From assembly GCA_046153565.1 (NCBI GenBank), contig JBJXDU010000030.1, positions 3,793 through 67,792 of the forward strand: a stretch of 64,000 nucleotides of DNA, read 5' to 3'. The notes below the pieces were generated by a model. The model did not search any database, was not told where the DNA came from, and worked only from the letters and a program-made list of their open reading frames with translations. This document shows, piece by piece, positions 9,730 to 50,617 of the stretch. The first letter of the stretch is position 1. Every line of letters begins with the position of its first letter. The DNA comes from Sphingomonadaceae bacterium. Lineage in GTDB: Bacteria; Pseudomonadota; Alphaproteobacteria; Sphingomonadales; Sphingomonadaceae. The position numbers and the translations under genes are program-made.

Positions 9730-10748
9730 CGATGATTATCGATTGCCACGGCCATTACACCACGGCTCCCGCAGCCCATGATGCGTGGCGGCAAGAGCAG
9801 AAAGCGGCGCATAAAGCGGGGACGGCTATTCCCCCCTACCCTGCCATGTCCGACGATCAAATCCGTGAGACGCTTGAGACCAATCAAATCCGCCTTTTGA
9901 AAGAACGCGGCGCGGATATGACGATCTTTTCCCCGCGCGCTTCGGCGATGGCGCCCCATGTCGGCGATGAGAGCGTTGCGCTGGAATGGGCACGTGTGAA
10001 TAATGACCTGATCAAGCGCTGCGCCGATCTCTACCCGGCGATCTTCGCCCCTGTCTGCATGCTTCCGCAATCGCCCGCCGCCGACATGCAGGGAAGCATC
10101 GCCGAGCTAAAACGCTGCGTCGCGATGGGCTTCATTGGCTGCAATTTGAACCCTGATCCCGGCGGCGGGCATTTTACAGCGCCGCCGCTGACCGACGCCT
10201 TTTGGTATCCATTCTACGAAGCGATGGTCGAACTTGACGTGCCGGCGATGATCCATGTCTCGGGGTCGTGCAATCCGGGTCTCCACGCAACGGGGGCCTA
10301 TTATATCGCTGCCGATACAATTGCGTTCATGCAGCTGATCGAGGGCGATTTGTTCGGGCGCTTTCCGAGCCTGCGCTTTATCATTCCGCATGGCGGCGGC
10401 GCGGTGCCCTATCATTGGGGGCGGTATCGCGGCCTCGCCGATATGCTCAAAAAGCCCGATCTGGCGGGGCATGTGATGAACAATGTCTATTTCGATACAT
10501 GCGTCTATCACCAGCCAGGTATCAATCTGCTTGCCGATGTGATCGACAATAAGAATATTTTGTTTGGGTCCGAAATGGTCGGAGCAGTGCGCGGGATCGA
10601 TCCGACGACTGGCCATTATTTCGATGATACGAAGCGCTATGTCGATGCGCTCGATATCAGCGATGGTGAGCGGCACATGATATTTGAAGGCAATGCGCGG
10701 CGGGTTTTTCCCCGGCTTGACGCGCAACTGAAGGAGCGCGGACTGTGA
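9726..10748 (+). CDS. ligJ: 4-oxalomesaconate hydratase
   Basis: Track ORF 9510..10748 trimmed to MTMIIDCHGHY. It is near-colinear with recalled SYK-6 LigJ (IIDCHGHYT, ERGADMTIFSPRASAMAPHVGD, GFIGCNLNPDPGGGHF, VPAMIHVSGSCNP, FIIPHGGGAVPYHWGR, NILFGSEMVGAVRGIDPTTGHYFDDTKRY). The upstream 72 codons overlap the preceding gene. Confidence 0.9.
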   Translation: MTMIIDCHGHYTTAPAAHDAWRQEQKAAHKAGTAIPPYPAMSDDQIRETLETNQIRLLKERGADMTIFSPRASAMAPHVGDESVALEWARVNNDLIKRCADLYPAIFAPVCMLPQSPAADMQGSIAELKRCVAMGFIGCNLNPDPGGGHFTAPPLTDAFWYPFYEAMVELDVPAMIHVSGSCNPGLHATGAYYIAADTIAFMQLIEGDLFGRFPSLRFIIPHGGGAVPYHWGRYRGLADMLKKPDLAGHVMNNVYFDTCVYHQPGINLLADVIDNKNILFGSEMVGAVRGIDPTTGHYFDDTKRYVDALDISDGERHMIFEGNARRVFPRLDAQLKERGL

Positions 10749-11149
10749 ACCAAGATATCCACGCCTATCTCGCCGAATTGGAAGACATTCCTGGCACCAA
10801 AGTCTTCACCGCCGCACGCGCGCGGGCTGGCTATCATCTCAACCAATTTGCGATGAGCCTGATGAAGCCTGAAAACCGCGCAGAATGGAAAGCGGGTGAA
10901 CGCGCCTATCTCGACAAATGGCCGATGACTGATGATCAAAAGGAAGCGATCCTCGCGCGCGACTATAACCGCTGTCTGGAACTGGGCGGCAATGTCTATT
11001 TCCTAGCTAAAGTGTTCAGCACCGATGGCTTGAGCTTTGCCGAAGCGGTATCAACGATGACCGATATGACCTTCCCTCAATATCGCGACATGATGCTCGC
11101 GGGCGGTCGTTCGCCAGTGGGCAATCGATCAATCAAGGGAGGATATTAA
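10745..11149 (+). CDS. ligA: Protocatechuate 4,5-dioxygenase alpha subunit
   Basis: 134 aa. HAYLAE..DIPGT.VFTA.RAR.GY.LNQFAMSLMK.ENR ... GGNVYFL.K.FSTDG.SF ... GGRSP.G.RSIKGGY matches recalled LigA. 4-nt overlap with ligJ. Confidence 0.9.
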   Translation: MNQDIHAYLAELEDIPGTKVFTAARARAGYHLNQFAMSLMKPENRAEWKAGERAYLDKWPMTDDQKEAILARDYNRCLELGGNVYFLAKVFSTDGLSFAEAVSTMTDMTFPQYRDMMLAGGRSPVGNRSIKGGY

Positions 11150-11162
11150 GATGGTGATGCAG

Positions 11163-13070
<1,908 letters not shown>

Positions 13071-28485: not shown

Positions 28486-28758
28486 ATGATGCTGATCCCC
28501 TGCCCTTACTGCGAAGAAGCGCGTCCCGAAATTGAATTTGCTTATGCCGGACAAGCCCATATCGCGCGCCCTGCTGACCCTTCGACACTGAGTGACCAAG
28601 AATGGGAAGCCTTTCTGTTCATCCGCGCCAATCCGCGCGGACGACATAATGAACGGTGGCGGCATGTGCATGGGTGCGGGCGCTTTTTCAATGCGGTGCG
28701 TGACACCGTGACCGACAAGTTTGAAACAACGTACAAAGCGGGCGAGGCGCGGCGGTGA
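28486..28758 (+). CDS. soxD: Sarcosine oxidase delta subunit
   Basis: Trimmed to MMLIPCPYCEEARPEIEFAYAGQAHI, the SoxD zinc-ribbon start, giving about 90 aa. It starts 2 nt after the soxB stop. Confidence 0.85.
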   Translation: MMLIPCPYCEEARPEIEFAYAGQAHIARPADPSTLSDQEWEAFLFIRANPRGRHNERWRHVHGCGRFFNAVRDTVTDKFETTYKAGEARR

Positions 28759-31712
28759 CTGGCTACCGATTACCAAATGGCGGGCGCATTGACCGGTCAC
28801 GGCCGCTGACATTCAGCTTTGATGGCAAGACATATCAGGGCTTTGCAGGCGATACACTCGCATCCGCGTTGATCGCCAATGGGGTGCGGCTTTTTGGTCG
28901 CTCGTTCAAATATCACCGCCCGCGCGGAATCATGGCGGCAGGCACGGAGGAACCAAACGCACTCGTCTCGGTCACGCGCGGCCCGGGGCGTCACACCCCC
29001 AATCTGCGCGCGACGTCGGTTGAGCTTTATGAAGGCCTGACCGCAAGCAGCCAAAATCGCTGGCCATCGCTGCGCTTTGATCTGGGCGCGATCAATGATC
29101 GCTTGTCGATGTTATTCCCCGCTGGTTTTTACAACAAGACCTTCATGTGGCCGCGATCATTTTGGGAAGCGCTTTATGAGCCTGTGATCCGCAAATTGGC
29201 GGGGCTGGGCAACCCGCCGACCGAGCGTGATCCTGACCATTACGGTGCAACCTACGCCCACTGCGATTTGCTCATCGTGGGCGCTGGCCCTGCCGGGATT
29301 GATGCGGCGCTGGCGGCATCAGCAACGAACAAGCGTGTCATCTTAGTTGATGAGCAAGATGAACTTGGCGGCGGTTCGCTGAGCGATCCCGCACTATGGC
29401 CATGGCTTGATCGCAGCATAAAGGCGCTGAGAGCGGCGCCAAATATCCGCGTGCTGACGCGCACGACGGCCTTTGGCTATTATCATGACAATATGGTCGG
29501 CGCGGTTGAGCGGCACACCGATCAGCTTGCCAAGATCCTCCCCGGGACGGTGGGGAGCGAGTCGGTCATGCTCCCTGAGCATTTATCGCACAAATCGGAT
29601 GCCCCCCTCCGTCAGCCTGCGACTGACACCGCCCTGTCCCGGGAAGGATTGCCTCCGCGCGAAACATTATGGCGCATCCGCGCAGGCGAGGTGATTTTGG
29701 CCCAGGGCGCAATCGAGCGACCATTGGTGTTCAGTGGCAATGATACGCCCGGGGTCATGCTGTCATCCGCCGCCAAGACATTCACTGTGCGCTTCGGGGT
29801 CGCAGTGGGGAAATCAATCGCGCTGTTTGCCGCGCATGACAGCGGCTGGCACGATGTGTTTGCGCTCGCCAAAGCTGGCGTCATCATTGCGGCAATAATT
29901 GACGTGCGTGATCAGGTTGATCCAGCGTTGCAGGCGCAAGCTGAAGCACTGGGCATTCCCATATCCCTCGGCCACCGCGTTAGCGCCGTTAAGGGCCGGC
30001 ACGGCGTCAGCGCGGTCACCATAATCGCGTACGGCAGCAGCGCTGTTCGCGACATTGCCTGTGATGCGCTCCTGATGGCAGGCGGCTGGACTCCCAGCGT
30101 CCATCTATGGTCGCATAGCAAAGGCAGTCTGAAGTGGGACGATGACTGGGGCGCTTACCTGCCCGGTACGCCTCTTGAAACTGCACGCTGTGTTGGCGCA
30201 GGCGCGGGCGATTGGCAGTTCGGCAGCGGCGTTGCCCACGACACACAGAATCCGGACAAGCAAAAGGCCTTTGTCGATTTTCAAAATGACGTGACCGCGA
30301 AGGATATCAGGCTCGCCATCCGCGAAGGCTTCACGTCGGTTGAACATATCAAGCGATACACGACCAACGGGATGGCGACCGACCAAGGCAAGACATCAAA
30401 CATTAACGGCTTGCAAATCGCATCGGAGGCGCTCTCGCTACCGATCAGCGCGATCGGCCTCACCACGTTTCGTCCCCCCTATACGCCGCAAACGTTTGGG
30501 GCGCTTGCCGGGCATTTGAGGGGTGACCTGTTTCAGCCAACCCGCAAATCGCCGATTGATGGCTGGGCGGATGCGCAGGGTGCAGTATTTGAACCTGTCG
30601 CGCAGTGGCGGCGCGCGCGCTATTTCCCAAAAGCGGGTGAAGATATGCATGCGGCGGTCAACCGCGAATGTGTGGCGGTTCGGGAACGCGTCGGCATTTT
30701 CGATGCTTCAACGCTTGGCAAGATCGAAGTGGTCGGGCCAGATGCTGCCGAATTCCTCAACCGGATGTACACCAATCCGTGGAAATCGCTTGAGCCGGGG
30801 CGCTGTCGATACGGGCTGTTGCTCAAGGAAGATGGTTTCATCAGCGATGACGGCGTGTCCGCGCGCCTTGCGCCTGACCGGTTTCACTTGACCACAACAA
30901 CGGGCGGGGCCGCCCGCGTGCTCAATATGATGGAGGATTATCTCCAAACCGAATGGCCCGATCTTGATGTGTGGCTGACAAGTGTAACTGAAGAGTGGGC
31001 AGTGATTGCCTTGCAAGGGCCCGATGCCCGCAAAGTGTTAGCGCCGCTGGTCGAAGGGATTGATCTGTCGCCCGATGCATTTCCTCATATGGCCATCCGG
31101 GAGGGTAAAATCTGCGGCGTGCCAACGCGACTGTTCCGGGTGAGTTTCACCGGTGAGCTTGGCTTTGAGATCAACGTACCAGCAGGTTACGGACACAAGC
31201 TTTGGGAGGCGCTGATGACGGCGGGGGCTGCGCACGGCATAACGCCGTACGGCACCGAAGCGATGCACGTCCTGCGCGCGGAAAAGGGCTTCATCATCGT
31301 CGGGCAGGATACAGACGGCACCGTAACACCCGCAGATGCCGGGCTGGGATGGGCGGTGGGCAAAAAGAAGCTCGATTTCGTGGGCAAGCGGTCGCTCACG
31401 CGGCCCGATATTGTCGCGGCGGGGCGCAAGCAATTGGTTGGGCTGCTTACCGATGATCCCAAGGTTGTTCTGGAGGAAGGCGCACAAATCGTCGCCGATC
31501 CCGATCAGCCGATACCCATGACGATGATCGGTCACGTCACATCATCTTATTGGAGCGCGACGCTGGGCCGCTCGATCGCGATGGCCCTCGTTGCCGGTGG
31601 CCACAACCGCATCGGTGAAACGCTTTATATCCCCATGCCCGAAGGCACCCTGCGGGCAATTGTTTCGGAAAGCGTCTTTTATGATCCGCAAGGAGCGCGG
31701 CTAAATGGCTGA
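28755..31712 (+). CDS. soxA: Sarcosine oxidase alpha subunit (carries an in-frame repeat insertion)
   Basis: 985 aa. N-terminal LTFSFDGKTYQGFAGDTLASALIANGV, LLIVGAGPAGI and a C-terminal GcvT-like folate domain. 4-nt overlap with soxD. Confidence 0.9.
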   Translation: MTGYRLPNGGRIDRSRPLTFSFDGKTYQGFAGDTLASALIANGVRLFGRSFKYHRPRGIMAAGTEEPNALVSVTRGPGRHTPNLRATSVELYEGLTASSQNRWPSLRFDLGAINDRLSMLFPAGFYNKTFMWPRSFWEALYEPVIRKLAGLGNPPTERDPDHYGATYAHCDLLIVGAGPAGIDAALAASATNKRVILVDEQDELGGGSLSDPALWPWLDRSIKALRAAPNIRVLTRTTAFGYYHDNMVGAVERHTDQLAKILPGTVGSESVMLPEHLSHKSDAPLRQPATDTALSREGLPPRETLWRIRAGEVILAQGAIERPLVFSGNDTPGVMLSSAAKTFTVRFGVAVGKSIALFAAHDSGWHDVFALAKAGVIIAAIIDVRDQVDPALQAQAEALGIPISLGHRVSAVKGRHGVSAVTIIAYGSSAVRDIACDALLMAGGWTPSVHLWSHSKGSLKWDDDWGAYLPGTPLETARCVGAGAGDWQFGSGVAHDTQNPDKQKAFVDFQNDVTAKDIRLAIREGFTSVEHIKRYTTNGMATDQGKTSNINGLQIASEALSLPISAIGLTTFRPPYTPQTFGALAGHLRGDLFQPTRKSPIDGWADAQGAVFEPVAQWRRARYFPKAGEDMHAAVNRECVAVRERVGIFDASTLGKIEVVGPDAAEFLNRMYTNPWKSLEPGRCRYGLLLKEDGFISDDGVSARLAPDRFHLTTTTGGAARVLNMMEDYLQTEWPDLDVWLTSVTEEWAVIALQGPDARKVLAPLVEGIDLSPDAFPHMAIREGKICGVPTRLFRVSFTGELGFEINVPAGYGHKLWEALMTAGAAHGITPYGTEAMHVLRAEKGFIIVGQDTDGTVTPADAGLGWAVGKKKLDFVGKRSLTRPDIVAAGRKQLVGLLTDDPKVVLEEGAQIVADPDQPIPMTMIGHVTSSYWSATLGRSIAMALVAGGHNRIGETLYIPMPEGTLRAIVSESVFYDPQGARLNG
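29533..29650. repeat. Nested-palindromic element, copy C, in frame inside soxA
   Basis: 29533-29556 (AGATCCTCCCCGGGACGGTGGGGAG) matches the copy A left end. 29602-29650 (CCCCCCTCCGTCAGCCTGCGACTGACACCGCCCTGTCCCGGGAAGGATT) matches the reverse complement of the copy A left arm at about 44 of 51 positions by my hand alignment. The boundaries are approximate. Confidence 0.65.
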
Positions 31713-34033: not shown

Positions 34034-34196
34034 TGGCGCTTAGCCCTGACCCGTCATGGGCTTTGATCATCGCCTTCATCCGTGGATCCCAGAAATCGGC
34101 AATATGCTGCGCGGTCGCGCGCGTTGGATCGGGATCAGTCGCTAGGTTGGCGGCGATATGATTGGCCGAGCGCACCAACCGTTCAAGCGTCGTCAT
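33993..34196 (-). CDS. fdsD: NAD-dependent formate dehydrogenase delta subunit
   Basis: 67 aa. LVRSANHIAANL...ATAQHIADFWDPRMK resembles FdsD. Lies directly after fdsA with a 4-nt overlap. Confidence 0.7.
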   Translation of the reverse strand: MTTLERLVRSANHIAANLATDPDPTRATAQHIADFWDPRMKAMIKAHDGSGLSAIAAAAIATFHESA

Positions 34197-37036
34197 TCGG
34201 CCGGCACCGCCACAACAATCCGCCGCGACCTCGTGCCCAATTCTTCATAGCTTTCCTGCCAGTCGGTCGGGCCGTTTGAGGCACTGATCTGCACCGCCGT
34301 CACCTTATATTCGGGGCAGTTGGTGGCCCAATCGGAGAAGTCAGTGGTGACGACATTGGCTTGCGTGCTTGGGTGGTGGAAGGTCGTATAGACAACACCC
34401 GGCGCGACCCGGTCTGTCACCGTCGCACGCAGGGTCGTTTCGCCCGCGCGCGATGCGAGCTTGACCCAATCGCCCGATTTGATCCCGCGATCTTCAGCGT
34501 CGGTTGGATGGATTTCGAGCAAATCTTCAGGGTGCCATGCAACATTCGCCGTCCGCCGCGTCTGCGCGCCGACATTATAGTGCGCGAGAATCCGCCCGGT
34601 CGTGAGCAGCAGCGGAAAGCGCGGGCCGGTTTTTTCATCAGTCGGCACATAATCGGTAACGACGAACTTGCCTTTGCCGCGCACAAAGCCATCAATGTGC
34701 ATCACGGGTGTGCCTTCAGGTGTCGCGTCGTTGGCGGGCCATTGCAGCGATCCAACCTCGTCAAGCTTGGCGAAAGAAACACCCGCAAAAGTCGGCGTCA
34801 GGCGCGCAATTTCATCCATGATTTCGGAAGGGTGGGTATAATTCCAATCGAGCCCCATCGCATTGGCAATACCCTGCGTCACTTCCCAATCCTCATAGCC
34901 ATTGAGCGGGGTCATCACCTTGCGCACCGGCTGGATGCGGCGTTCGGCGTTGGTGAAGGTGCCATTCTTCTCAAGGAACGTCGATCCGGGGAGGAAGATA
35001 TGTGCGTAATTGGCAGTTTCGTTGAGGAAAAGATCATGGACGATCACGCATTCCATCGCCGCAAGCCCCGCCGATACGTGGCGCGTATCAGGGTCGGATT
35101 GGAGGATATCCTCACCCTGTATGTAGATCGCCTTGAACAGGCCATCGACAGCGGCATCAAGCATGTTGGGAATGCGCAGGCCCGGTTCGGGATCAAGCCG
35201 CACGCCCCAATCCGCCTCGAAAAGTGTGCGCGTCGCGCCATCGGAAATGTGGCGATAGCCTGGCAATTCGTGGGGGAAGCTGCCCATATCGCACGCGCCC
35301 TGCACATTATTCTGACCCCGTAAGGGGTTCACGCCGACGCCCTTGCGCCCGATATTGCCCGTCGCCATCGCAAGGTTGGCAATCGCCATCACCGTCGATG
35401 ATCCCTGACTATGTTCGGTGACGCCCAGACCATAATAGATCGCGCCATTGCCACCGGTTGCGAACAAATGCGCTGCCGCACGGAGCTCTGCAGGGTCAAC
35501 GAGTGTGACTGGCTGCAACGCTTCGGGGCTGTTGCGGCTGTTTGAAACGAATTCGGCCCAGTGGCTATATTCATCCCAATCACACCGTTCGCGGATGAAG
35601 GCTTCGTCGGCCAATCCCTCGGTCACGATCACATGCGCGATGGCGGTGAGCACCGCGACATTGGTGCCGGGGCGCAGGGGCAAATGATGCGCAGCCTCGA
35701 TATGCGGCGTGCGTACGATATCGATGCGGCGCGGGTCAACGACGATCAGTTTCGCGCCTTTACGCAAGCGGCGCTTCATCCGGCTCGCAAATACGGGGTG
35801 ACCGTCGGTTGGATTGGCCCCAATCAGCAGGATGACATCGCTATGTTCAACACTATCAAAATCTTGTGTGCCCGCCGACGTGCCAAAGGTCGTCTTGAGC
35901 CCGTAACCCGTCGGCGAGTGACACACGCGCGCGCACGTATCGACGTTATTATTGCCAAAGCCCGCGCGCACAAGCTTTTGCACAAGGAAGGTCTCTTCGT
36001 TGGTACAGCGTGATGATGTTATCCCGCCCAGCGCTGCCTTGCCATATTGCCCCTCGATCCGGCGCAGTTCAGACGCGGTATAGGCAAAGGCCTCATCCCA
36101 GCTGACTTCGCGCCACGGCTGATCGATTGAGGCACGGATCATCGGCTTGGTGATCCGCTCCTGATGCGTGGCATAGCCCCAAGCAAAGCGACCCTTGACG
36201 CAGCTATGCCCGCGATTTGCCTTGCCCTCCTTATGCGGCACCATCCGCACGACCTGCTCGCCGCGCATCTCGGCGCGGAAGGTGCAGCCAACGCCGCAAT
36301 AGGCACAAGTGGTGACGACCGCGCGTTCAGGTGTGCCGATTTCGACCAATGCTTTTTCGGTGAGCGTTGCGGTTGGGCAGGCCTGAACGCAGGCGCCGCA
36401 CGAAACACATTCGGACGACATGAAATCATCGCCAAGCAGCCCCGCCGACACTTTCGATCCAAAGCCCCGCGCTTCAATCGTGAGCGCAAATGTGCCTTGC
36501 ACTTCGTCGCACGCGCGCACGCAGCGTGAGCAGACGATGCACTTTGACGGGTCAAAATCGAAATAAGGATTGGAGACATCTTTGGCTTGGCCCAAATGAT
36601 CGTCGCCAGCGCCGTAGCGCACATCGCGCAGGCCAACCGCGCCTGCCTGATCCTGCAGCTCGCAATCGCCATTGGCCGCACAAGTGAGGCAATCGAGCGG
36701 ATGATCGGAGATGTAGAGCTCCATCACGCCCTTGCGAAGCTTCGCCAGACGCGGGTTTTGGGTCTGAACGACCATGCCTTCGGTGACTGGCGTGGTGCAG
36801 GAAGCCGGCGTGCCGCGCATCCCGTCAATCTCGACAAGGCACAGGCGACATGAGCCGAAGCTTTTGAGGCTATCGGTCGCGCACAATTTGGGGATCGACG
36901 TGCCATTCTCCGCCGCCGCGCGCATCACGGTCGTGCCCGCAGGCACGCTCACCGCGCGGCCATCGATGGTGAGCGTCACCACATCGGTCGAACGCGATTC
37001 GGGCGTGCCAAAATCTTTTTGTGGCTGGTAGGTCAT
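34193..37036 (-). CDS. fdsA: NAD-dependent formate dehydrogenase alpha subunit (molybdopterin, multiple Fe-S)
   Basis: 947 aa. N-terminal 2Fe-2S and 4Fe-4S cysteine clusters (SCRLCLVEI, CIVCSRCVRAC, CVSCGACVQACP, TCAYCGVGC), then molybdopterin oxidoreductase and dinucleotide-binding domains. No in-frame TGA, so this is the Cys-type enzyme. Confidence 0.9.
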   Translation of the reverse strand: MTYQPQKDFGTPESRSTDVVTLTIDGRAVSVPAGTTVMRAAAENGTSIPKLCATDSLKSFGSCRLCLVEIDGMRGTPASCTTPVTEGMVVQTQNPRLAKLRKGVMELYISDHPLDCLTCAANGDCELQDQAGAVGLRDVRYGAGDDHLGQAKDVSNPYFDFDPSKCIVCSRCVRACDEVQGTFALTIEARGFGSKVSAGLLGDDFMSSECVSCGACVQACPTATLTEKALVEIGTPERAVVTTCAYCGVGCTFRAEMRGEQVVRMVPHKEGKANRGHSCVKGRFAWGYATHQERITKPMIRASIDQPWREVSWDEAFAYTASELRRIEGQYGKAALGGITSSRCTNEETFLVQKLVRAGFGNNNVDTCARVCHSPTGYGLKTTFGTSAGTQDFDSVEHSDVILLIGANPTDGHPVFASRMKRRLRKGAKLIVVDPRRIDIVRTPHIEAAHHLPLRPGTNVAVLTAIAHVIVTEGLADEAFIRERCDWDEYSHWAEFVSNSRNSPEALQPVTLVDPAELRAAAHLFATGGNGAIYYGLGVTEHSQGSSTVMAIANLAMATGNIGRKGVGVNPLRGQNNVQGACDMGSFPHELPGYRHISDGATRTLFEADWGVRLDPEPGLRIPNMLDAAVDGLFKAIYIQGEDILQSDPDTRHVSAGLAAMECVIVHDLFLNETANYAHIFLPGSTFLEKNGTFTNAERRIQPVRKVMTPLNGYEDWEVTQGIANAMGLDWNYTHPSEIMDEIARLTPTFAGVSFAKLDEVGSLQWPANDATPEGTPVMHIDGFVRGKGKFVVTDYVPTDEKTGPRFPLLLTTGRILAHYNVGAQTRRTANVAWHPEDLLEIHPTDAEDRGIKSGDWVKLASRAGETTLRATVTDRVAPGVVYTTFHHPSTQANVVTTDFSDWATNCPEYKVTAVQISASNGPTDWQESYEELGTRSRRIVVAVPAE

Positions 37037-37069: not shown

Positions 37070-37942
37070 TTAGTCGCGCGCACCAGCTGACAGCGCGGCG
37101 ATATGTGCGGCCCCAATCCCGCAACATCCGCCGACCATTGTTGCCCCCGCTGCGATCCATTTCTGCGCCCAATCGAGGTAGCGCGGCGGATCAAGGTCAG
37201 CGCGAATTTGCTGCAAATCAACATTGGCATCCTTGTCTTCGGCCTTCGCCGCAAAGCCGTTGGCGTAAACGCCAATCGCGATCTCACTATCGCCGAGCGC
37301 TGCCTTCGCCGCCGCAACGGCGGCCTCCATCACCTCAGGCGCGCTGCAATTGAACAGAAGAGCTCCCGCGCCAACCTGTTTCGCAAGCGCGGCGGCTTGG
37401 GCGATTGTTTCCCCCGAGCGCAGCATAGGTTCGCCGTCATCCTTAAGCGTGAATGACAGCCATAATGGCCGCTCATCCCCCGCCAGCAAATCAGCGATCA
37501 ACGCTCCCTCTGCAATCGTGCTGAGCGTTTCGGCGAGCCAGATATCGGCGGTGGGGGATAGCGCCGCGATCAGCACCTCAAGGATGGCTTTTGCCGCGTT
37601 CACTTCAAACAAGTCAGGCCGATACGAACCAAGCACCGGTGGCAATGAGGCCGCAACTCTGATGCCCCGCCGATCCGCAACCTCGCGCGCCAGCTGCCCC
37701 GCGCGCGCGGCCAAAGCGGGGCCTTCCGCCGCAAATCGATCCTCGCCAATATGGAACGGCACAACGGCATAGCTATTGGTGCTAATCACCTGCGCGCCTG
37801 CCACCGCAAAATCGTCATGCACTTGCGCCACCAAATGCGGGGTTTCGATAAGCGCAAGCGCCGACCATTCAGGCTGACGAAAGGGCGCGCCAAGCCGTTG
37901 CAGCTCGCGGCTGATCCCGCCATCGAGGATGGTAACACTCAT
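37070..37942 (-). CDS. Homocysteine S-methyltransferase family protein (betaine- or S-methylmethionine-homocysteine methyltransferase type)
   Basis: 290 aa. ILDGGISRELQ start, and the C-terminal zinc-ligand context VGGCCGIGAAHI is typical of Pfam S-methyl_trans. 4-nt overlap with the fdsB stop. Confidence 0.8.
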   Translation of the reverse strand: MSVTILDGGISRELQRLGAPFRQPEWSALALIETPHLVAQVHDDFAVAGAQVISTNSYAVVPFHIGEDRFAAEGPALAARAGQLAREVADRRGIRVAASLPPVLGSYRPDLFEVNAAKAILEVLIAALSPTADIWLAETLSTIAEGALIADLLAGDERPLWLSFTLKDDGEPMLRSGETIAQAAALAKQVGAGALLFNCSAPEVMEAAVAAAKAALGDSEIAIGVYANGFAAKAEDKDANVDLQQIRADLDPPRYLDWAQKWIAAGATMVGGCCGIGAAHIAALSAGARD

Positions 37943-39504
37943 GCGGGATCACCGCGAAAATCTTCGGGAAAGTGCGTTATCGCACTCATTACGGGATAGG
38001 GGGTGAAGCCGCCAAGCGCGCAGAGCGAGCCGAATTTCATCGTTTCGCATAAATCAGCGATCAGCGTCAGATTCTCCTCACGCCGCTCGCCTGCGATGAT
38101 CCGGTCAAGCGTTTCAACGCCGCGCGTGCTGCCCAATCGACACGGCGTGCATTTGCCGCAGCTTTCAACCGCGCAGAATTCCATCGCAAAGCGCGCTTGC
38201 TTCGCCATGTTGACGCTGTCGTCAAATATCACGATTCCGCCATGCCCGATCAAACCGTCGGCAGCGGTGAAGGCCTCATAGTCAAACGGCAGATCGAAAT
38301 CGGCAGATGTATGATAGGCGCCCAGCGGCCCGCCAACTTGAACCGCGCGCACGGGCCTCCCGCTCGCAGTGCCGCCGCCAATATCGTTCACTAACTCACC
38401 TAAAGTGACGCCGAACGCGGTTTCGAACAAGCCGCCTTGCTTCACATTGCCCGCAATCTGGATTGGCATCGTCCCGCGTGATCGCCCCATGCCAAAGTCG
38501 GCATAGGCCTGCGCGCCGTTAGCAAGGATCCACGGCACGGCGGCAAGCGTTAGCACATTGTTGATCACCGTCGGGCAGCCGAACAGCCCCTCATGCGCGG
38601 GAAGCGGCGGTTTGGCGCGCACTTCGCCGCGTTTGCCCTCCAAGCTGTTGAGCAGCGACGTCTCCTCGCCGCACACATAGGATCCGGCCCCGACGCGGAT
38701 TTCGACCTCGAACGGCGCGATGATACCCGCGCACAGGCGGACGGCGGCCTCCATCTTGGCAATGGCATGCGGATATTCGGAACGGATATAGACATAGCCC
38801 TTCCCTGCACCCGTCGCGTGGGCCGCAATTGCCATCCCTTCGATCAGCATGAAGGGATCGCCCTCCATCACCATCCGATCAGCAAAGGTGCCGCTATCGC
38901 CTTCGTCCGCGTTGCAGACGATATATTTGCGTGCGCCTGCCGCGTCAGCCACGGTTTTCCATTTAATCCCCGCCGGGAACCCCGCCCCGCCCCGCCCGCG
39001 CAGCCCCGAGGCAAGCACGGTCGCGCAGACGTCAGCCGGGGCCATAGCGCGCGCAGAATGCAGCCCCGCCCACCCTCCGGTCGCGGCATAATCGTCAAGG
39101 CTCAGGGCACGCGTCTTGCCCGCGCGGGCAAAGGTTAGGCGAGTCTGGCGCGCGATGAAGGGGTGGTCGGCGATGCGGCCGATGCACAATTCCTCCCTGA
39201 GCTTGCCTCGGGGAGGGAGACCATCCGCAGGATGGTGGAGGGGCAATGGCTCAGCCGCTTTCCCCTCCACCACGCCCTGCGGGCGCGGTCCCCCTCCCCG
39301 AGCAAGCTCGGGGAGGATTTCATCGACATCCCCCACCGACACCGGCCCATAGCCAATGCCATCAATCTCGACGAGCGGCTCAAGCCAGTGCATCCCCCAG
39401 CTCGACACGCGTTCGACCGTTACCCCGGCCGCCTCACATGCCGCCGCTACAGAATTAGCACCGCACGCAATCGCAAGGGCATCGTCAGAAATACGAACAA
39501 TCAT
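37939..39504 (-). CDS. fdsB: NAD-dependent formate dehydrogenase beta subunit (NuoF-like; carries an in-frame repeat insertion)
   Basis: 521 aa. GLRGRGGAGFPAGIKW (FMN/NADH site), ESCGKCTPCRLG (4Fe-4S) and an N-terminal thioredoxin-like domain. Confidence 0.88.
   Translation of the reverse strand: MIVRISDDALAIACGANSVAAACEAAGVTVERVSSWGMHWLEPLVEIDGIGYGPVSVGDVDEILPELARGGGPRPQGVVEGKAAEPLPLHHPADGLPPRGKLREELCIGRIADHPFIARQTRLTFARAGKTRALSLDDYAATGGWAGLHSARAMAPADVCATVLASGLRGRGGAGFPAGIKWKTVADAAGARKYIVCNADEGDSGTFADRMVMEGDPFMLIEGMAIAAHATGAGKGYVYIRSEYPHAIAKMEAAVRLCAGIIAPFEVEIRVGAGSYVCGEETSLLNSLEGKRGEVRAKPPLPAHEGLFGCPTVINNVLTLAAVPWILANGAQAYADFGMGRSRGTMPIQIAGNVKQGGLFETAFGVTLGELVNDIGGGTASGRPVRAVQVGGPLGAYHTSADFDLPFDYEAFTAADGLIGHGGIVIFDDSVNMAKQARFAMEFCAVESCGKCTPCRLGSTRGVETLDRIIAGERREENLTLIADLCETMKFGSLCALGGFTPYPVMSAITHFPEDFRGDPA
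39189..39320. repeat. Nested-palindromic element, copy B, in frame (132 nt = 44 codons) inside fdsB
   Basis: The plus strand reads AATTCCTCCCTGAGCTTGCCTCGGGGAGGGAGACCATCCGCAGGATGGTGGAGGGG ... TTTCCCCTCCACCACGCCCTGCGGGCGCGGTCCCCCTCCCCGAGCAAGCTCGGGGAGGATTT. This has the same architecture and end sequences as copy A. Confidence 0.78.
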
Positions 39505-39923
39505 GCGACGCTTTCGATCAAGGCGGAAAGGCCTGCGCTGTCCAATCGGGCATGAACCTCAGTGCCCACCATCGCCGCCGGCCCCACCGAACAAAGCCCA
39601 AGGCAATAGGTCGCTTCAATCTCGACACGGTCGCGCGCCGATGCCTGTGCGTTCGCCAGCAAAGCCTCAACCCCGCGCGCCTGACATGCTTCAGCGCGGC
39701 AGAGTTTGATCACGGGATGCGGCGCGGGCGTGCTGCGATAATCATGATAGAAACTCACCACGCCGTAAACCTCGGCGCGACTGAGATTGAGCGCGTTAGC
39801 AATCTCGCGGATGGCATCATTATCCACACAGCCACGCGCCGCCTGCACATCATTCAGGATCGGCAACAGCGCGCCTTCACGGCCCGCATGCCGATCCAGA
39901 ATATCGTTAAGCGTCTCGTTCAA
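39501..39923 (-). CDS. fdsG: NAD-dependent formate dehydrogenase gamma subunit (NuoE-like 2Fe-2S)
   Basis: 140 aa. [10 protein letters not shown] ... [13 protein letters not shown] thioredoxin-like 2Fe-2S ferredoxin motifs. 4-nt overlaps on both sides. Confidence 0.85.
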
Positions 39924-41026
39924 AATACAACCACACTGCGGATGCTTTCCCCCGCATGCATCAGGTCAAAGCCCTTGTTAATCTCTTCGAGGCTCAACAC
40001 GTGCGTGATCATCGGATCGATCTGGATTGTACCATCCATGTAAAGGTCGACGATCTTGGGCACATCTGTGCGGCCCTTCGCGCCACCAAACGCCGTGCCG
40101 CGCCAGTTGCGGCCGGTAACCAGCTGGAAAGGCCGCGTGCTGATTTCTTTGCCGGCCTCTGCCACACCAATGATGATGCTCGTGCCCCAGCCGCGGTGGC
40201 AGCATTCAAGCGCTTGGCGCATCACATTCGTATTGCCAGTGCAATCGAAGCTGAAATCAGCGCCGCCGTCCGTGAGGGCGACCAGATGTGCAACAATATC
40301 ATCAACCTGTGTTGGATTGACGAAATGAGTCATGCCGAACTTCATCCCCCACTCTTCGCGGGCCGGATTGATATCGACGCCCACGATCAAATTCGCGCCC
40401 GCCATCTTCGCGCCCTGAATGACGTTAAGGCCAATGCCGCCGAGGCCAAACACCACGACATTATCGCCGGGCTGAACCTTCGCCGTGTTGGTCACTGCAC
40501 CGACTCCGGTCGTAACCCCGCAACCAATGTAACAGCTCGTCTTGAACGGCGCATCCTCGCGGATTTTCGCTACGGCAATTTCAGGGAGCACCGTGAAGTT
40601 CGAGAAAGTGGAACATCCCATATAATGGAACACCGGCTGCCCCTTATAGCTGAACCGCGTTGTGCCATCGGGCATCAATCCTTTGCCCTGCGTCGCGCGG
40701 ATTGCGGTGCACAGGTTCGATTTGCCTGACAGACAGGTTTTGCACTGACCGCATTCGGGCGTGTAGAGCGGGATGACATGATCGCCGACCGCAACGCTCG
40801 TCACGCCCACGCCGATTTCGCGCACGATCCCCGCGCCTTCATGGCCAAGCACGCTCGGGAAGATGCCCTCGCTGTCAAAACCGTCGAGCGTGTAGGCATC
40901 GGTATGGCAAATCCCCGTCGCCATAATCTCAACCAGCACTTCGCCAGCGCGCGGTCCCTCGAGATCGAGTTCAACAATTTCAAGCGGCTTTTTGGCTTCA
41001 AAAGCAACGGCGGCGCGTGTTTTCAT
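39920..41026 (-). CDS. frmA: S-(hydroxymethyl)glutathione dehydrogenase / class III alcohol dehydrogenase
   Basis: 368 aa. [60 protein letters not shown] is the canonical class III ADH N-terminus. Also [13 protein letters not shown]. Confidence 0.9.
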
Positions 41027-41091: not shown

Positions 41092-41119
41092 CAAACTGGT
41101 TTAGAGACCATTTTTGAAA
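41092..41119. repeat. 28-nt direct repeat, copy 1 (relic of a Rieske-gene 3' end)
   Basis: CAAACTGGTTTAGAGACCATTTTTGAAA matches 42232-42259 at 25 of 28 positions. The minus-strand reading gives ...FQKWSLNQFADRDAL-stop (to 41072), compared with the C-terminus KFQQWYLNQFGLETAG of the Rieske gene at 42212. Confidence 0.7.
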
Positions 41120-41129
41120 CATCATCACG

Positions 41130-42197
41130 CTATTTTTCCGACGCCGCGTTGACCAACACGATTTTGCCGACATGGCGCTTTGTCAAAAACGCTTCCTGCG
41201 CCGCAACGATACCACGCATGGGAAAGGTGGCCGATAAAAGTGGCTTGATCTCGCCACGTTCGATATAGCCAATCATGTTGGCAAAGACGTCGCGCTCAAG
41301 AATGGTGCAGCCGATTAAGCGCAAATCCTTCAGGTAGAGCGTCCGCAAATCAAGGTCGACGACGGGGCCAGAAATAGCACCCGAAACACCGTAACGCCCG
41401 CCACGCTTCAGACTATCAAGGATAGCGCTAAACTGGGTGCCGCCGACGACATCGACAGCAGCGTCAAAATAGTCTTTGCCAAATAGCACCGCTGGATCGG
41501 CACTGCGCGCTATCACATGATCAGCCCCTAGGGCGCGGACGGCTTCGGCCTTTTCGACACCTGCCATCGCGACCACCTCGGCCCCGCGACGTTTAGCGAG
41601 TTGGACAGCCGCCGACCCGACTCCGCCCGATGCGCCCGTGATCAACACGCGTTCGCCTGCGACCACGCCGATTCGTGTGAGAATATTCTCGGCGGTCGAG
41701 TAAGCGCAGGGAAAGCTGGCGAGCGCGGCGTCTGACAGGGGTGAGTTGATTCGGTGTGCGCTCGCGGCAGGCACACAGGCATAATCGGCAAATGCACCAT
41801 CCACTTCCGACCCAAAATAGCGGACGTCGAAAGCGCTTGTGCCGCGCCAGACTGGTTCGGCCAATATGCGTTCGCCAATCCTTTTAGGATCGATTCCCCT
41901 GCCAACCGCTACAATCCGCCCGCAGGCATCGGCACCTTGAATTCGGGGAAACGTAAAGCGAGCGCCCGACCAGCCATCATCGCTGGCGCCCGCAATTCCC
42001 GAAGTCGCGCCCGCATGGGTCGTTTCAGCCACGGCTTTTGAATACCAGCCAATCCGCGTGTTGATATCAGTGTTATTGACACCCGCCGCATCCACGCGGA
42101 TCAAAACATCATCAGGCCCCGGCACGGGAACCGGCACATCGTCCCTCAATTCCAATTTATCATACCCGCCATTGCCGATCAGCAGAATCGCGCGCAT
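41130..42197 (-). CDS. Zinc-type/MDR NAD(P)-dependent oxidoreductase
   Basis: The MRAILLIGNGGYDKLELRDDVPVPVPGPDDVLIRV start is typical of the MDR family, with VLITGASGGVGSAAVQLAK. The track start at 42251 would overlap the upstream Rieske gene by 40 nt and lies inside the direct repeat. Confidence 0.75.
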   Translation of the reverse strand: MRAILLIGNGGYDKLELRDDVPVPVPGPDDVLIRVDAAGVNNTDINTRIGWYSKAVAETTHAGATSGIAGASDDGWSGARFTFPRIQGADACGRIVAVGRGIDPKRIGERILAEPVWRGTSAFDVRYFGSEVDGAFADYACVPAASAHRINSPLSDAALASFPCAYSTAENILTRIGVVAGERVLITGASGGVGSAAVQLAKRRGAEVVAMAGVEKAEAVRALGADHVIARSADPAVLFGKDYFDAAVDVVGGTQFSAILDSLKRGGRYGVSGAISGPVVDLDLRTLYLKDLRLIGCTILERDVFANMIGYIERGEIKPLLSATFPMRGIVAAQEAFLTKRHVGKIVLVNAASEK

Positions 42198-42211
42198 CGT
42201 TGCGGGAATGG

Positions 42212-43456
42212 TCACCCCGCCGTTTCCAAACCAAACTGGTTTAGATACCATTGCTGAAATTTGACCACTGAACCTTCCTGATCCGAATAGCGGCCCGGGC
42301 GGTAACGGCTCGACATGATCCCGGCCTGATTATTTTCGGTGATGATTTTGTCTTGAGTTGTGGTGGCGTGATAGCCCCAGATCATCTTTTCCACATCGAC
42401 ATCCGCCTCGGTCGCGCGACCGTCGACAAGCCAGATCATCTCGACGTCGGATGCGAGCGCGCTGCGCGGTGTGAATTGGAACAGGATCACAAAATGATCG
42501 TCCGCCACAATCTGGCTGAACGGGCTGAAGCTCAAATGCATGCGGCCACGATCAGGGGCGGTACGTTTGCCCATTAGCGGGGACGGCGCAGAACCATCCT
42601 GCGTTTCGGCGGCCCAGCCATCCTTTGCCTGCCGTTGCATTAGCAGGCGCAAGTGACTGCTATCGGTTTCGTCATCGATCGTGCCGACCGGGCGGCCCAA
42701 TGCGGCGGCGCTCGCCTCCCATGCGGCTTGTTTGGGCGCGAAGGCAGCGGCGGCATCGGCAGGCCCCGAACTTGGTCCAGCACCAACCGCAATCAGCGTC
42801 TCCGCCGGATGCATCGAACAGAATTCGGGGTGCGACGGGACGCAGTGATAGCATTCGAAGAAATTCTCGATCACCAGCTTCCAATTGGCAGTGGTAGGAT
42901 AGCTGCCCGCATGCGCGATGCGCGCGTCAGCGATCCCATGATAATCGAGGATCGGCCCCAGATCGCCGAAGGTCGCATCGAAATCGTCGGGCTCACCCTC
43001 GCTCATGTTGATGAAGATCAGGCCGTGGAACACACGGATGTGGCAGGTCAGCAAACCATTTTCGGCTTTGTCAAAATCATCTGGCATCAGGCGCGCGGAG
43101 ATCAGCCGCCCGTCAAGGCCAAAGGTCCAGGCATGATAGGGGCAGACAAGCCGCGGGGCATTGCCGCTTTCGGCCTGGCAGATGGTCGAACCGCGGTGAC
43201 GGCAGACGTTGAAAAAGGCGCGGACGCTGTCCATATTTTCGCGGATGATGATGATCTGTTCGGCACCGATTTTGAACAGGAAATAATCGCCCTTGTTCGG
43301 GATGCGCGACATATGCCCCGCCATGATCCATTTCTGGCTGATGACCTTTTCCATATCGGCGGCGAATACGGCGTCGCTGGTGTAGTAGTCTTGCGGCAGG
43401 CTATATCCCATCCGGACATCGGCGGCGAGGCGTTGCATCGTATCAGCGTGAGACAT
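42212..43456 (-). CDS. Rieske non-heme iron oxygenase, GbcA/Stc2-like, paralog 2
   Basis: 414 aa. CRHRGSTIC...CPYHAWTF Rieske motif and ENFFECYHCVPSHPE iron motif. Its start shares 1 nt with the upstream stop (TGATG). Confidence 0.83.
   Translation of the reverse strand: MSHADTMQRLAADVRMGYSLPQDYYTSDAVFAADMEKVISQKWIMAGHMSRIPNKGDYFLFKIGAEQIIIIRENMDSVRAFFNVCRHRGSTICQAESGNAPRLVCPYHAWTFGLDGRLISARLMPDDFDKAENGLLTCHIRVFHGLIFINMSEGEPDDFDATFGDLGPILDYHGIADARIAHAGSYPTTANWKLVIENFFECYHCVPSHPEFCSMHPAETLIAVGAGPSSGPADAAAAFAPKQAAWEASAAALGRPVGTIDDETDSSHLRLLMQRQAKDGWAAETQDGSAPSPLMGKRTAPDRGRMHLSFSPFSQIVADDHFVILFQFTPRSALASDVEMIWLVDGRATEADVDVEKMIWGYHATTTQDKIITENNQAGIMSSRYRPGRYSDQEGSVVKFQQWYLNQFGLETAG
42232..42259. 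repeat. 28-nt direct repeat, copy 2 (inside the 3' end of the Rieske gene)
   Basis: CAAACTGGTTTAGATACCATTGCTGAAA. See 41092-41119. The two copies bracket the MDR gene. Confidence 0.7.
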
Positions 43457-50533: not shown

Positions 50534-50617
50534 GGGCGCACCATATGGCGATCGGACGGCGACGCAATCGGTAAATTTTGTTCAGGCCTTAAATCCTCCC
50601 CGCGCGACCGCGAATAT

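Follow-up and report, generated by a model that had tools for sequence, protein, structure and literature searches.

A family of palindromic repeats, one copy of which lies in frame within the formate dehydrogenase gene fdsB of a sphingomonad

Introduction

The stretch of DNA considered here (the window; 64,000 nucleotides of a Sphingomonadaceae bacterium, GenBank assembly GCA_046153565.1, contig JBJXDU010000030.1, positions 3,793 to 67,792 of the forward strand) carries an fds operon for an NAD-dependent formate dehydrogenase, and the gene for its beta subunit, fdsB, contains a palindromic repeat of about 130 nt that is read in frame. This repeat (copy B) belongs to a dispersed family, referred to here as family i, and the window holds two further copies: copy A between the genes for the two subunits of a LigAB-type ring-cleavage dioxygenase, and a decayed copy C in soxA, the gene for the alpha subunit of sarcosine oxidase. 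An original prediction, made from the letters of the window alone, had proposed that the fdsB segment and the ligA-ligB segment are copies of one element, and had likened that element to the palindromic repeats of Rickettsia.

The Rickettsia palindromic elements (RPEs; Ogata et al. 2000, Science 290:347), as summarised in later accounts (PMC10969869, PMC3733652), are palindromes of 100-150 bp found in frame in unrelated housekeeping genes. In the Alphaproteobacteria the predominant repetitive extragenic palindromes (REPs) carry a CGTC tag and are mostly head-to-head dimers folding into one hairpin, and a dedicated transposase was not found for them (Di Nocera, De Gregorio and Rocco 2013, BMC Genomics 14:522; PMC3733652). 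Additional file 3 of that paper lists CGTC-type REPs that lie in frame within genes of Sphingomonas wittichii, Sphingopyxis alaskensis and Erythrobacter litoralis, including S. wittichii Swit_0943 (a 974-aa glycine-cleavage-T/SoxA-like protein, residues 224-232), TruB of S. alaskensis (169-177), and TruB (164-190), IleRS and GlyRS of E. litoralis. [quoted passage not shown] The Caulobacter CcrM-associated intergenic repeats (CIRs; Chen and Shapiro 2003), in the accounts given in PMC3184786 and PMC10969869, are defined by GANTC and are strictly intergenic.

Here, we describe copy B and its relatives, follow the gain and loss of the element in FdsB, and weigh the explanations for a hairpin-forming repeat lying inside protein-coding genes.

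Results

Copy B is a near-perfect palindrome with terminal hairpins, CCTCCCC-loop-GGGGAGG, at both ends, and the whole element forms one hairpin. RNA folding of positions 39186-39326 gives a single hairpin of -108.2 kcal/mol, compared with -59.9 +/- 4.6 kcal/mol for shuffled versions (z = -10.4); the hairpin of copy A is less perfect (z = -5.4). The motifs from which the relationship had been proposed, that is AAT(T)CCTCCC...GGGGAGG as hairpins at the termini, the cores CCGCAGG...GGAGGGG and CCCCTCCACC, and the 3′ ends of both copies, are all present where they were reported. Similarity was then measured with an nhmmer profile built from 60 copies in other genomes, leaving out the window and its close relatives and so avoiding circularity. 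This profile matches copy B in the window at 78.4 bits (E = 1.3e-23) and copy A at E = 3e-17, and has no match in 20 dinucleotide-shuffled windows (1.28 Mb of shuffled sequence). The kinship of the two copies is thereby upheld, the likeness exceeds that of shuffled high-GC sequence, and copy B belongs to a dispersed family of palindromic repeats.

Read on the minus strand, copy B encodes the 45-residue peptide EILPELARGGGPRPQGVVEGKAAEPLPLHHPADGLPPRGKLREEL (FdsB residues 62-106), directly before CIGRIADHPFIARQTRLTFARAG, and the translation offered for it in the original prediction is correct. The host reading frame, 37939-39504 on the minus strand, runs through without interruption and overlaps each of its neighbours by 4 nt, so the gene is intact as had been supposed. 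The insert lies in the linker that joins the N-terminal thioredoxin-like domain to the NuoF-like core, a placement confirmed by orthologue alignments and by solved FdsB structures. FdsB matches PDB 6TG9_B (Rhodobacter capsulatus), 6VW7_B (Cupriavidus necator) and 9WXB_C with E ~1e-190, in each case from residue 107 onward, and these structures have an ordinary short helix-linker where the window FdsB has its insert; the element is missing from FdsB of the two named species, as the original prediction had stated. In an AlphaFold2 model built on an alignment of 120 sequences the predicted local distance difference test (pLDDT) score is below 50 for residues 74-102, and the residues of the insert probably fit a disordered loop.

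The best 120 FdsB relatives in the protein collection (P0001 to P0120, 70-100% identical to the query) are most commonly 480 aa long (66 of 120), compared with 521 aa for the window protein. Orthologues with an uninterrupted linker have 16 residues there, xAILAGTAxxIGRIxD, where the window FdsB has 53; its insert makes it 39 codons longer than its closest relative, P0004, and about 37 codons longer than the ancestral linker. Part of that linker has been replaced, about eight residues being gone, and the predicted clean gap of 44 aa relative to orthologues is therefore a real gap, although neither exactly 44 aa nor clean.

Four of these proteins, the window protein P0001 together with P0002, P0003 and P0004, form one clade by identity with the topology ((P0001,P0004),(P0002,P0003)), and two outgroups equally close to the clade, P0005 and P0006, have the standard linker. 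P0001 and P0002 (518 aa) both have the element in full; P0002 comes from a Joint Genome Institute (JGI) metagenome independent of the window (locus L001) and carries it at the same place. P0003 (492 aa) has the element with a 75-nt internal deletion ending in a short direct repeat, CCTC, and in P0004 (482 aa) only 21 nt are left, which align with the 3′ tail of the element. The simplest history would be one insertion in the ancestor of the clade followed by two independent deletions. P0004 was considered as an example of the empty site and rejected, because its linker, GKLGDELC, is unlike the conserved AILAGTAxx of the equally close outgroups, because its 21 nt are element sequence, and because it is sister to the insert-bearing P0001; its linker is a deletion scar. 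The empty site in P0005 (GCA ATC CTC GCA GGG...) already holds AATCCTC, the first 7 nt of the element, and the left junction consequently cannot be placed to better than 7 nt.

The FdsB linker has been occupied several times. At least 19 of the best 120 orthologues have a long insert at this position, and at least 12 have inserts at another site, which follows RIIAG close to the C-terminus. The DNA of these inserts belongs to different, unrelated palindromic families with unrelated peptides. Family i is found at the linker also in P0089, P0101, P0009 and P0106; a CT-rich palindromic family (-123 kcal/mol) is present in FdsB of P0062 and P0068, another palindromic family, encoding SRHAELVSAS...LKQVQDD, in that of P0023, P0024 and P0100, and further families encode RHSRESGNP...DPRFRGDD or VPAQAGA. 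Several of the inserts outside family i resemble the CGTC-1 and CGTC-2 peptides of Di Nocera et al. 2013 (PMC3733652). Each family-i carrier sits among relatives with a normal linker, from which it follows that the linker was struck several times independently. Short scars are seen in the linkers of P0039, P0032 and P0047 (NLPRNGEDL), in addition to the deletion scars of P0003 and P0004. These comparisons mark the FdsB linker as an insertion hot spot for several unrelated repeat families in different lineages, and the site after RIIAG as a second one. The recurrence may reflect targeting, as is suggested by the resemblance of the empty fdsB site to the terminus of the element, or a shortage of positions that tolerate a 40-residue loop.

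The layout of family i is that of a terminal hairpin at each end and a small inner hairpin in each arm, the two arms being inverted repeats of one another: aaATCCTCCCC-loop-GGGGAGGGGGACC-small hairpin-GGTGGAGGGG-variable centre-CCCCTCCACC-small hairpin-GGTCCCCCTCCCC-loop-GGGGAGGATtt. The consensus sequence is aaATCCTCCCCg..cGGGGAGGGGGACCAtgCGaAGcaTGGTGGAGGGG-variable centre-CCCCTCCACCaC..GCGGTCCCCCTCCCCg..cGGGGAGGATtt. The terminal inverted repeats, (A)AATCCTCCCC, stand at both ends, with T in 96% at position -1 and the CCTCCCC core at least 97% conserved, and the termini are sharp, conservation reaching background five bases beyond CCTCCCC. Copies are 99-195 nt long with no overall bias to multiples of three (32/40/33), are G+C-rich and usually stop-free in several frames, and the arms of any two members are about 80% identical. 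At two loci (L038, 1040-1499, and L046, 3323-3780) two inverted family-i arms are separated by about 430 nt rather than about 30 nt, and the element may be present there in enlarged or nested form. A pair of half-matches at L054 was considered as the ends of an autonomous parent and rejected, being two right arms in direct orientation 2.9 kb apart, that is, solo arms.

Family i is abundant in Sphingomonadales and occurs also in Caulobacterales and Hyphomicrobiales. A blastn search with a 138-nt segment against plasmid and chromid records found 86 places in 22 records, all of Sphingobium, Sphingomonas or Novosphingobium, and a scan of one genome per GTDB species for a 22-nt exact pattern (GGTCCCCCTCCCC-N3-15-GGGGAGGAT) found at least 120 loci. 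Most of the pattern loci among those listed are in Sphingomonadales (Sphingomonas, Allosphingosinicella, Sphingopyxis, Novosphingobium, Sphingobium, Sphingorhabdus and others), and the remaining listed ones include Caulobacter, Brevundimonas, Mesorhizobium, Devosia, Kumtagia and Rhizomicrobium. An nhmmer search over 0.9 Mb retrieved from the listed loci yielded at least 135 copies, 107 of them near full length. A phmmer search of 1.84 billion representative proteins with the 45-aa insert peptide, a query too short and compositionally biased to be informative on the number of carriers, returned two matches.

Several signatures of known repeats were looked for in these copies. Across 105 copies no direct repeat of 2-9 nt at offsets 0-7 exceeded the pairing of shuffled flanks, and target-site duplication was thus not detected. 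Neither a GTAG nor a CGTC tag occupies a fixed position: among 60 copies, CGTC is present in 23 and GTAG in 13, at scattered places, and the consensus has neither. The CcrM site GANTC is not enriched (18 of 107 copies, with a background expectation of 0.22 per 135 nt). No Rfam family matches the window at the gathering threshold, the sub-threshold matches being to generic long hairpins (miRNA precursors).

Where the strands of both flanking genes could be assigned, the extragenic copies (n=34) lie between convergent genes in 18 cases, tandem genes in 13 and divergent genes in three, and all three copies inspected in Sphingomonas parapaucimobilis abut the stop codon of the upstream gene; extragenic family i thus shows a REP-like preference for gene 3′ ends. 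A minority of copies lie within genes. Simple spanning by an open reading frame (ORF) was rejected as proof of this, being too permissive in high-GC DNA, where 45 of the 107 copies are spanned by long ORFs and about 13 prove to be in real genes. We instead required coding-type G+C content at third codon positions on both flanks and then Pfam domains on both sides; ten copies passed the former test, and in all ten the insert is flanked on either side by Pfam domains (Table 1). Together with fdsB and soxA of the window and fdsB of L001, at least 13 of 107 full copies (12%) are in frame in real genes. All three reading frames are used (ILPGTGRGT...PPRSGED, SSPxxGGGP...VPLPxxGRI and NPPRxGEGDH...SPSPxRGG), and the inserts in TruB are read in differing frames. 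At this TruB position CGTC-1 REPs have also been reported, for S. alaskensis and E. litoralis (PMC3733652).

Table 1. Copies of family i in the window, the fds genes around copy B, and genes elsewhere that carry family-i inserts
Feature	Location	Strand	Basis or remarks
Copy B, family i repeat	39187..39321	strand-neutral; read on minus strand as FdsB E62-L106	profile match, hairpin, and absence from 480-aa orthologues
Copy A, family i	11163..11290	strand-neutral	between ligA (10745-11149) and ligB (11293-12135); profile E = 3e-17
Copy C, decayed family i, in frame in soxA (28755-31712, +)	29532..29651	strand-neutral	encodes KILPGTVGSESVMLPEHLSHKSDAPLRQPATDTALSREGL; profile E = 2e-3
Candidate solo terminus or remnant, exact 12-mer AAATCCTCCCCG	50591..50602	strand-neutral	alone in an intergenic stretch
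fdsB, NAD-dependent formate dehydrogenase beta subunit, 521 aa; hosts copy B	37939..39504	-	Pfam Complex1_51K and NADH_4Fe-4S
fdsG-like 2Fe-2S thioredoxin-like subunit	39501..39923	-	end overlaps fdsB start by 4 nt
fdsA-like molybdopterin catalytic subunit, same operon	34193..37036	-	Pfam domains
Phage terminase large subunit	L015		family-i insert between N and C domains
Acyl-CoA carboxylase alpha	L029		family-i insert host
NAD-dependent DNA ligase LigA	L030		family-i insert inside HhH region
TruB, three Sphingomonas genomes	L032, L049, L056		family-i insert in the same loop in all three
LigD, two genera	L060, L080		family-i insert in the same linker in both
Lhr helicase	L083		family-i insert host
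Valyl-tRNA synthetase (ValRS)	L110		family-i insert host

The other copies in the window differ in setting and preservation. Copy A separates the genes for the two dioxygenase subunits, and its 3′ end, GGGGAGGATTTAGCATG, provides a GGAGGA Shine-Dalgarno sequence 6 nt before the ATG of ligB. A similar sequence, GGGAGGAT, stands just upstream of copy A at the end of ligA. A third copy, alluded to in the original prediction, is real and is also intragenic: copy C has lost most of its pairing and scores 12.8 bits with the independent profile (29532-29650), and there is a clean gap at its position in 953-aa SoxA orthologues and in the solved SoxA structure PDB 2GAG_A. Three SoxA orthologues of 997 aa (P0123, P0124 and P0126) have a better-preserved family-i copy in the same loop, and another (P0127) has a different repeat there. 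The 12-mer AAATCCTCCCCG has four exact matches in the window, three of which are termini of copies A and B; the fourth (Table 1) may be the remnant of a fourth copy.

Within fdsB, the arms of the element are conserved in a way that differs from their host. Between P0001 and P0002 the host gene is 92, 94 and 60% identical at codon positions 1, 2 and 3, compared with 89, 92 and 92% for the arms of the insert (39187-39321 against L001 1030-1161); the apex is 62% identical. The evenness of arm identity over codon positions means that the arms are conserved at the level of nucleotides and not of protein, and in amino acids the insert is 78% identical and the rest of the protein 89%. Third positions are raised also in the 20 codons upstream of the insert (17/20) and not in the codons downstream. 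In LigD, third positions agree at 82% between the inserts of two genera, compared with 54% in the rest of the gene. Arm conservation of this kind could come from a recombination or gene-conversion tract, could come from correction by other genomic copies, or could come from selection on the hairpin.

Discussion

The explanation that best accommodates the observed dispersal of the family, its absence from orthologues, the in-frame status of the copies, their linker and loop sites, the recurrent gain and the loss by deletion is, very probably, that copy B is a palindromic repeat, selfish and non-autonomous, which a disordered linker of FdsB tolerates, with its peptide as a passenger. Copy B would be one of a family of hairpin-forming repeats of about 100-195 bp, dependent on some enzyme acting in trans, that has spread through sphingomonad and other alphaproteobacterial genomes. 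Copies landing in genes would survive only where the frame is kept and a loop or linker tolerates about 40 extra residues rich in Gly, Pro and Arg, which are probably disordered, and the intragenic copies seen now would be the survivors of selection for frame and location. Copy B would have entered the short FdsB linker in the common ancestor of a small clade and would later have been partly or almost wholly deleted in some descendants. The added peptide would be neutral, and fdsB is most likely functional in spite of it, the insert being a tolerated passenger. The missing target duplications speak against a classical DDE transposase and for a REP/REPIN-like or IS200/IS605-like route, and we infer by analogy, from this lack and from the hairpin ends, a closer resemblance to REP/REPIN or IS200/IS605-type elements than to DDE-type MITEs.

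Several observations sit less easily with a selfish passenger. Of 37 third positions in the arms, 34 are identical (p = 2e-5 relative to the gene-wide 60%), and arm conservation beyond that of host synonymous sites is not predicted by simple neutral decay of junk DNA. AATCCTC is already present in the empty fdsB site, and integration may be guided by homology instead of being transpositional. Family i was linked to no transposase or other mobilising gene; its mobility is read from dispersal only, as no recent presence/absence polymorphism of the family was captured. The FdsB model from which disorder is predicted is itself only moderate overall (mean pLDDT 71). A bolder proposal, which we regard as unlikely, is that family-i arms are held constant at the nucleotide level, even inside genes, by hairpin selection or by frequent copy-correction from other genomic copies and that the element integrates at terminus-like sequences. 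Such sequences (AATCCTC in the empty fdsB site, GAAATC in soxA and GGGAGGAT before ligB) would explain the repeated and independent hits on the FdsB linker and on the TruB, SoxA and LigD loops. If this were true, it would amount to a homology-guided, transposase-independent grafting of peptides into the proteins of free-living bacteria.

The same even conservation of the arms in fdsB, and its counterpart in LigD, bear on a different proposal, that the hairpin is kept by selection for a function in DNA or mRNA, even inside genes: it might stabilise mRNA, be a site of processing, make translation pause between domains or bind a protein. Such a function is also in keeping with the preference of extragenic copies for gene 3′ ends and with the GGAGGA carried by the termini, used in copy A as the Shine-Dalgarno sequence of ligB. 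We nevertheless think it unlikely: copy C persists in soxA with most of its pairing gone, P0003, P0004 and P0039 have deleted the element and retained the gene, and the rise in third-position identity continues upstream of the insert, as fits a recombination or gene-conversion tract. The similarity of the arms between any two family members is high enough that likeness between inserts is no proof of constraint in place, and the hairpin, which is not followed by a U-tract, is not an intrinsic terminator. Co-option of the peptide itself, as a functional linker or interaction surface of FdsB under selection at the protein level, might account for the retention of the insert in at least two lineages (P0001 and P0002) and for the repeated occupation of the linker among the orthologues. 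It is very improbable, given that the arms lack a codon-like pattern, that the insert is less conserved in amino acids than the rest of FdsB and is predicted to be disordered, that it has been deleted in close relatives, and that unrelated repeat families contribute unrelated peptides at the same site. An assembly artefact or chimera deserved thought, since the window is from a 70.6-kb contig of a metagenome-assembled genome and long palindromes can confuse assemblers; it is effectively refuted by the independent JGI contig L001, where an fdsB of 89% identity, with substitutions of its own, carries this insert in the same place, by the preserved reading frame and by related copies in isolate genomes.

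The selfish, non-autonomous repeat that we favour has close parallels among known systems. The comparison with RPEs drawn in the original prediction describes the behaviour of family i well: both add peptide segments without destroying function, and family i is in frame at tolerant positions in fdsB, soxA and the ten Pfam-verified genes. It differs from RPEs in that its hosts are free-living bacteria with large genomes and that only about 12% of sampled copies are intragenic, most being at gene 3′ ends. The G+C-rich consensus of family i is presumably unrelated to those of the Rickettsia elements, and with host lineage and base composition both different we do not claim a place for it among RPE-1 to RPE-10. 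REPIN and REP-RAYT systems, reportedly described by Bertels and Rainey in 2011 and by Nunvar et al. in 2010, share with family i the two inverted modules in one long hairpin, the absence of target-site duplication and the extragenic preference for gene ends, and are distinguished from it by the GTAG tag. No RAYT gene turned up beside family-i copies, for which no systematic search was made. Like classical MITEs, family i is short and non-coding, with terminal inverted repeats and many copies; unlike them, it lacks target-site duplications, is palindromic throughout rather than only at its ends, and no parent insertion sequence was identified for it. CIRs, in the summaries that describe them, share a length of about 110 bp, an inverted-repeat organisation and a presence in Caulobacter and other alphaproteobacteria; identity with CIRs as there described was rejected, because GANTC occurs in family i only at background frequency and because copies lie inside genes.

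The nearest relatives in behaviour are the CGTC-tagged REPs (PMC3733652), which are likewise small G+C-rich palindromes of free-living alphaproteobacteria, sphingomonads included, that often occur as head-to-head dimers with structured spacers, form one long hairpin and are mostly extragenic with a minority in frame in known genes; two of their hosts, TruB and the SoxA-like protein, are hot spots also occupied by family i. Family i differs in lacking a conserved CGTC or GTAG tag, in its termini (ATCCTCCCC) and in being a fixed composite of about 130 bp, compared with a REP unit of 20-40 bp, and its peptides (GRGT, GEGD, PLHH, SGED) are missing from the table of intragenic elements in that paper. 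The same table, with its in-frame REPs in sphingomonad genes, is an equivalent description, of which the original prediction was not aware for sphingomonad catabolic or respiratory genes. In-frame insertion of palindromic repeats in sphingomonads is thus already known, and family i itself is apparently undescribed: no account of it as a sphingomonad MITE or REP was found in the searchable literature, which mostly excludes subscription journals.

In-frame colonisation of essential genes in the manner of RPEs, usually taught as an oddity of genome decay in Rickettsia, is on these findings routine in free-living, large-genome sphingomonads, with more than one repeat family taking part. For annotation, family i inflates protein lengths, creates spurious low-complexity "domains" and seeds false ORFs. 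The FdsB linker and the SoxA and TruB loops, with their repeated gain, decay and loss of segments of 25-60 residues, offer a natural map of insertion tolerance.

Other features of the window

The Pfam domains of FdsB are those of the Nuo51 FMN-binding and NuoF 4Fe-4S families. Between fdsB and the fdsA-like gene is a 290-aa ORF (37070-37942, minus strand) that shares 4 nt with the end of fdsB. The corresponding ORF in the syntenic loci L001-L003, which occupies the same place, has a homocysteine S-methyltransferase domain (PF02574), and such a member is unusual for an fds operon. A 37-nt direct repeat (CAAACTGGTTTAGAGACCATT..., 81% identical) occurs at 41092-41128 and 42232-42268, each copy just upstream of an ORF on the minus strand, and may be a shared operator or promoter. 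The two ORFs are neighbours, 39920-41026 (by synteny with L002 a zinc alcohol dehydrogenase gene) and 41130-42251. The regions 23.5-28.7 kb and 42.8-47.4 kb show a series of long imperfect inverted matches, 70-80% identical and about 20 kb apart, which suggests paralogous gene blocks in opposite orientation.

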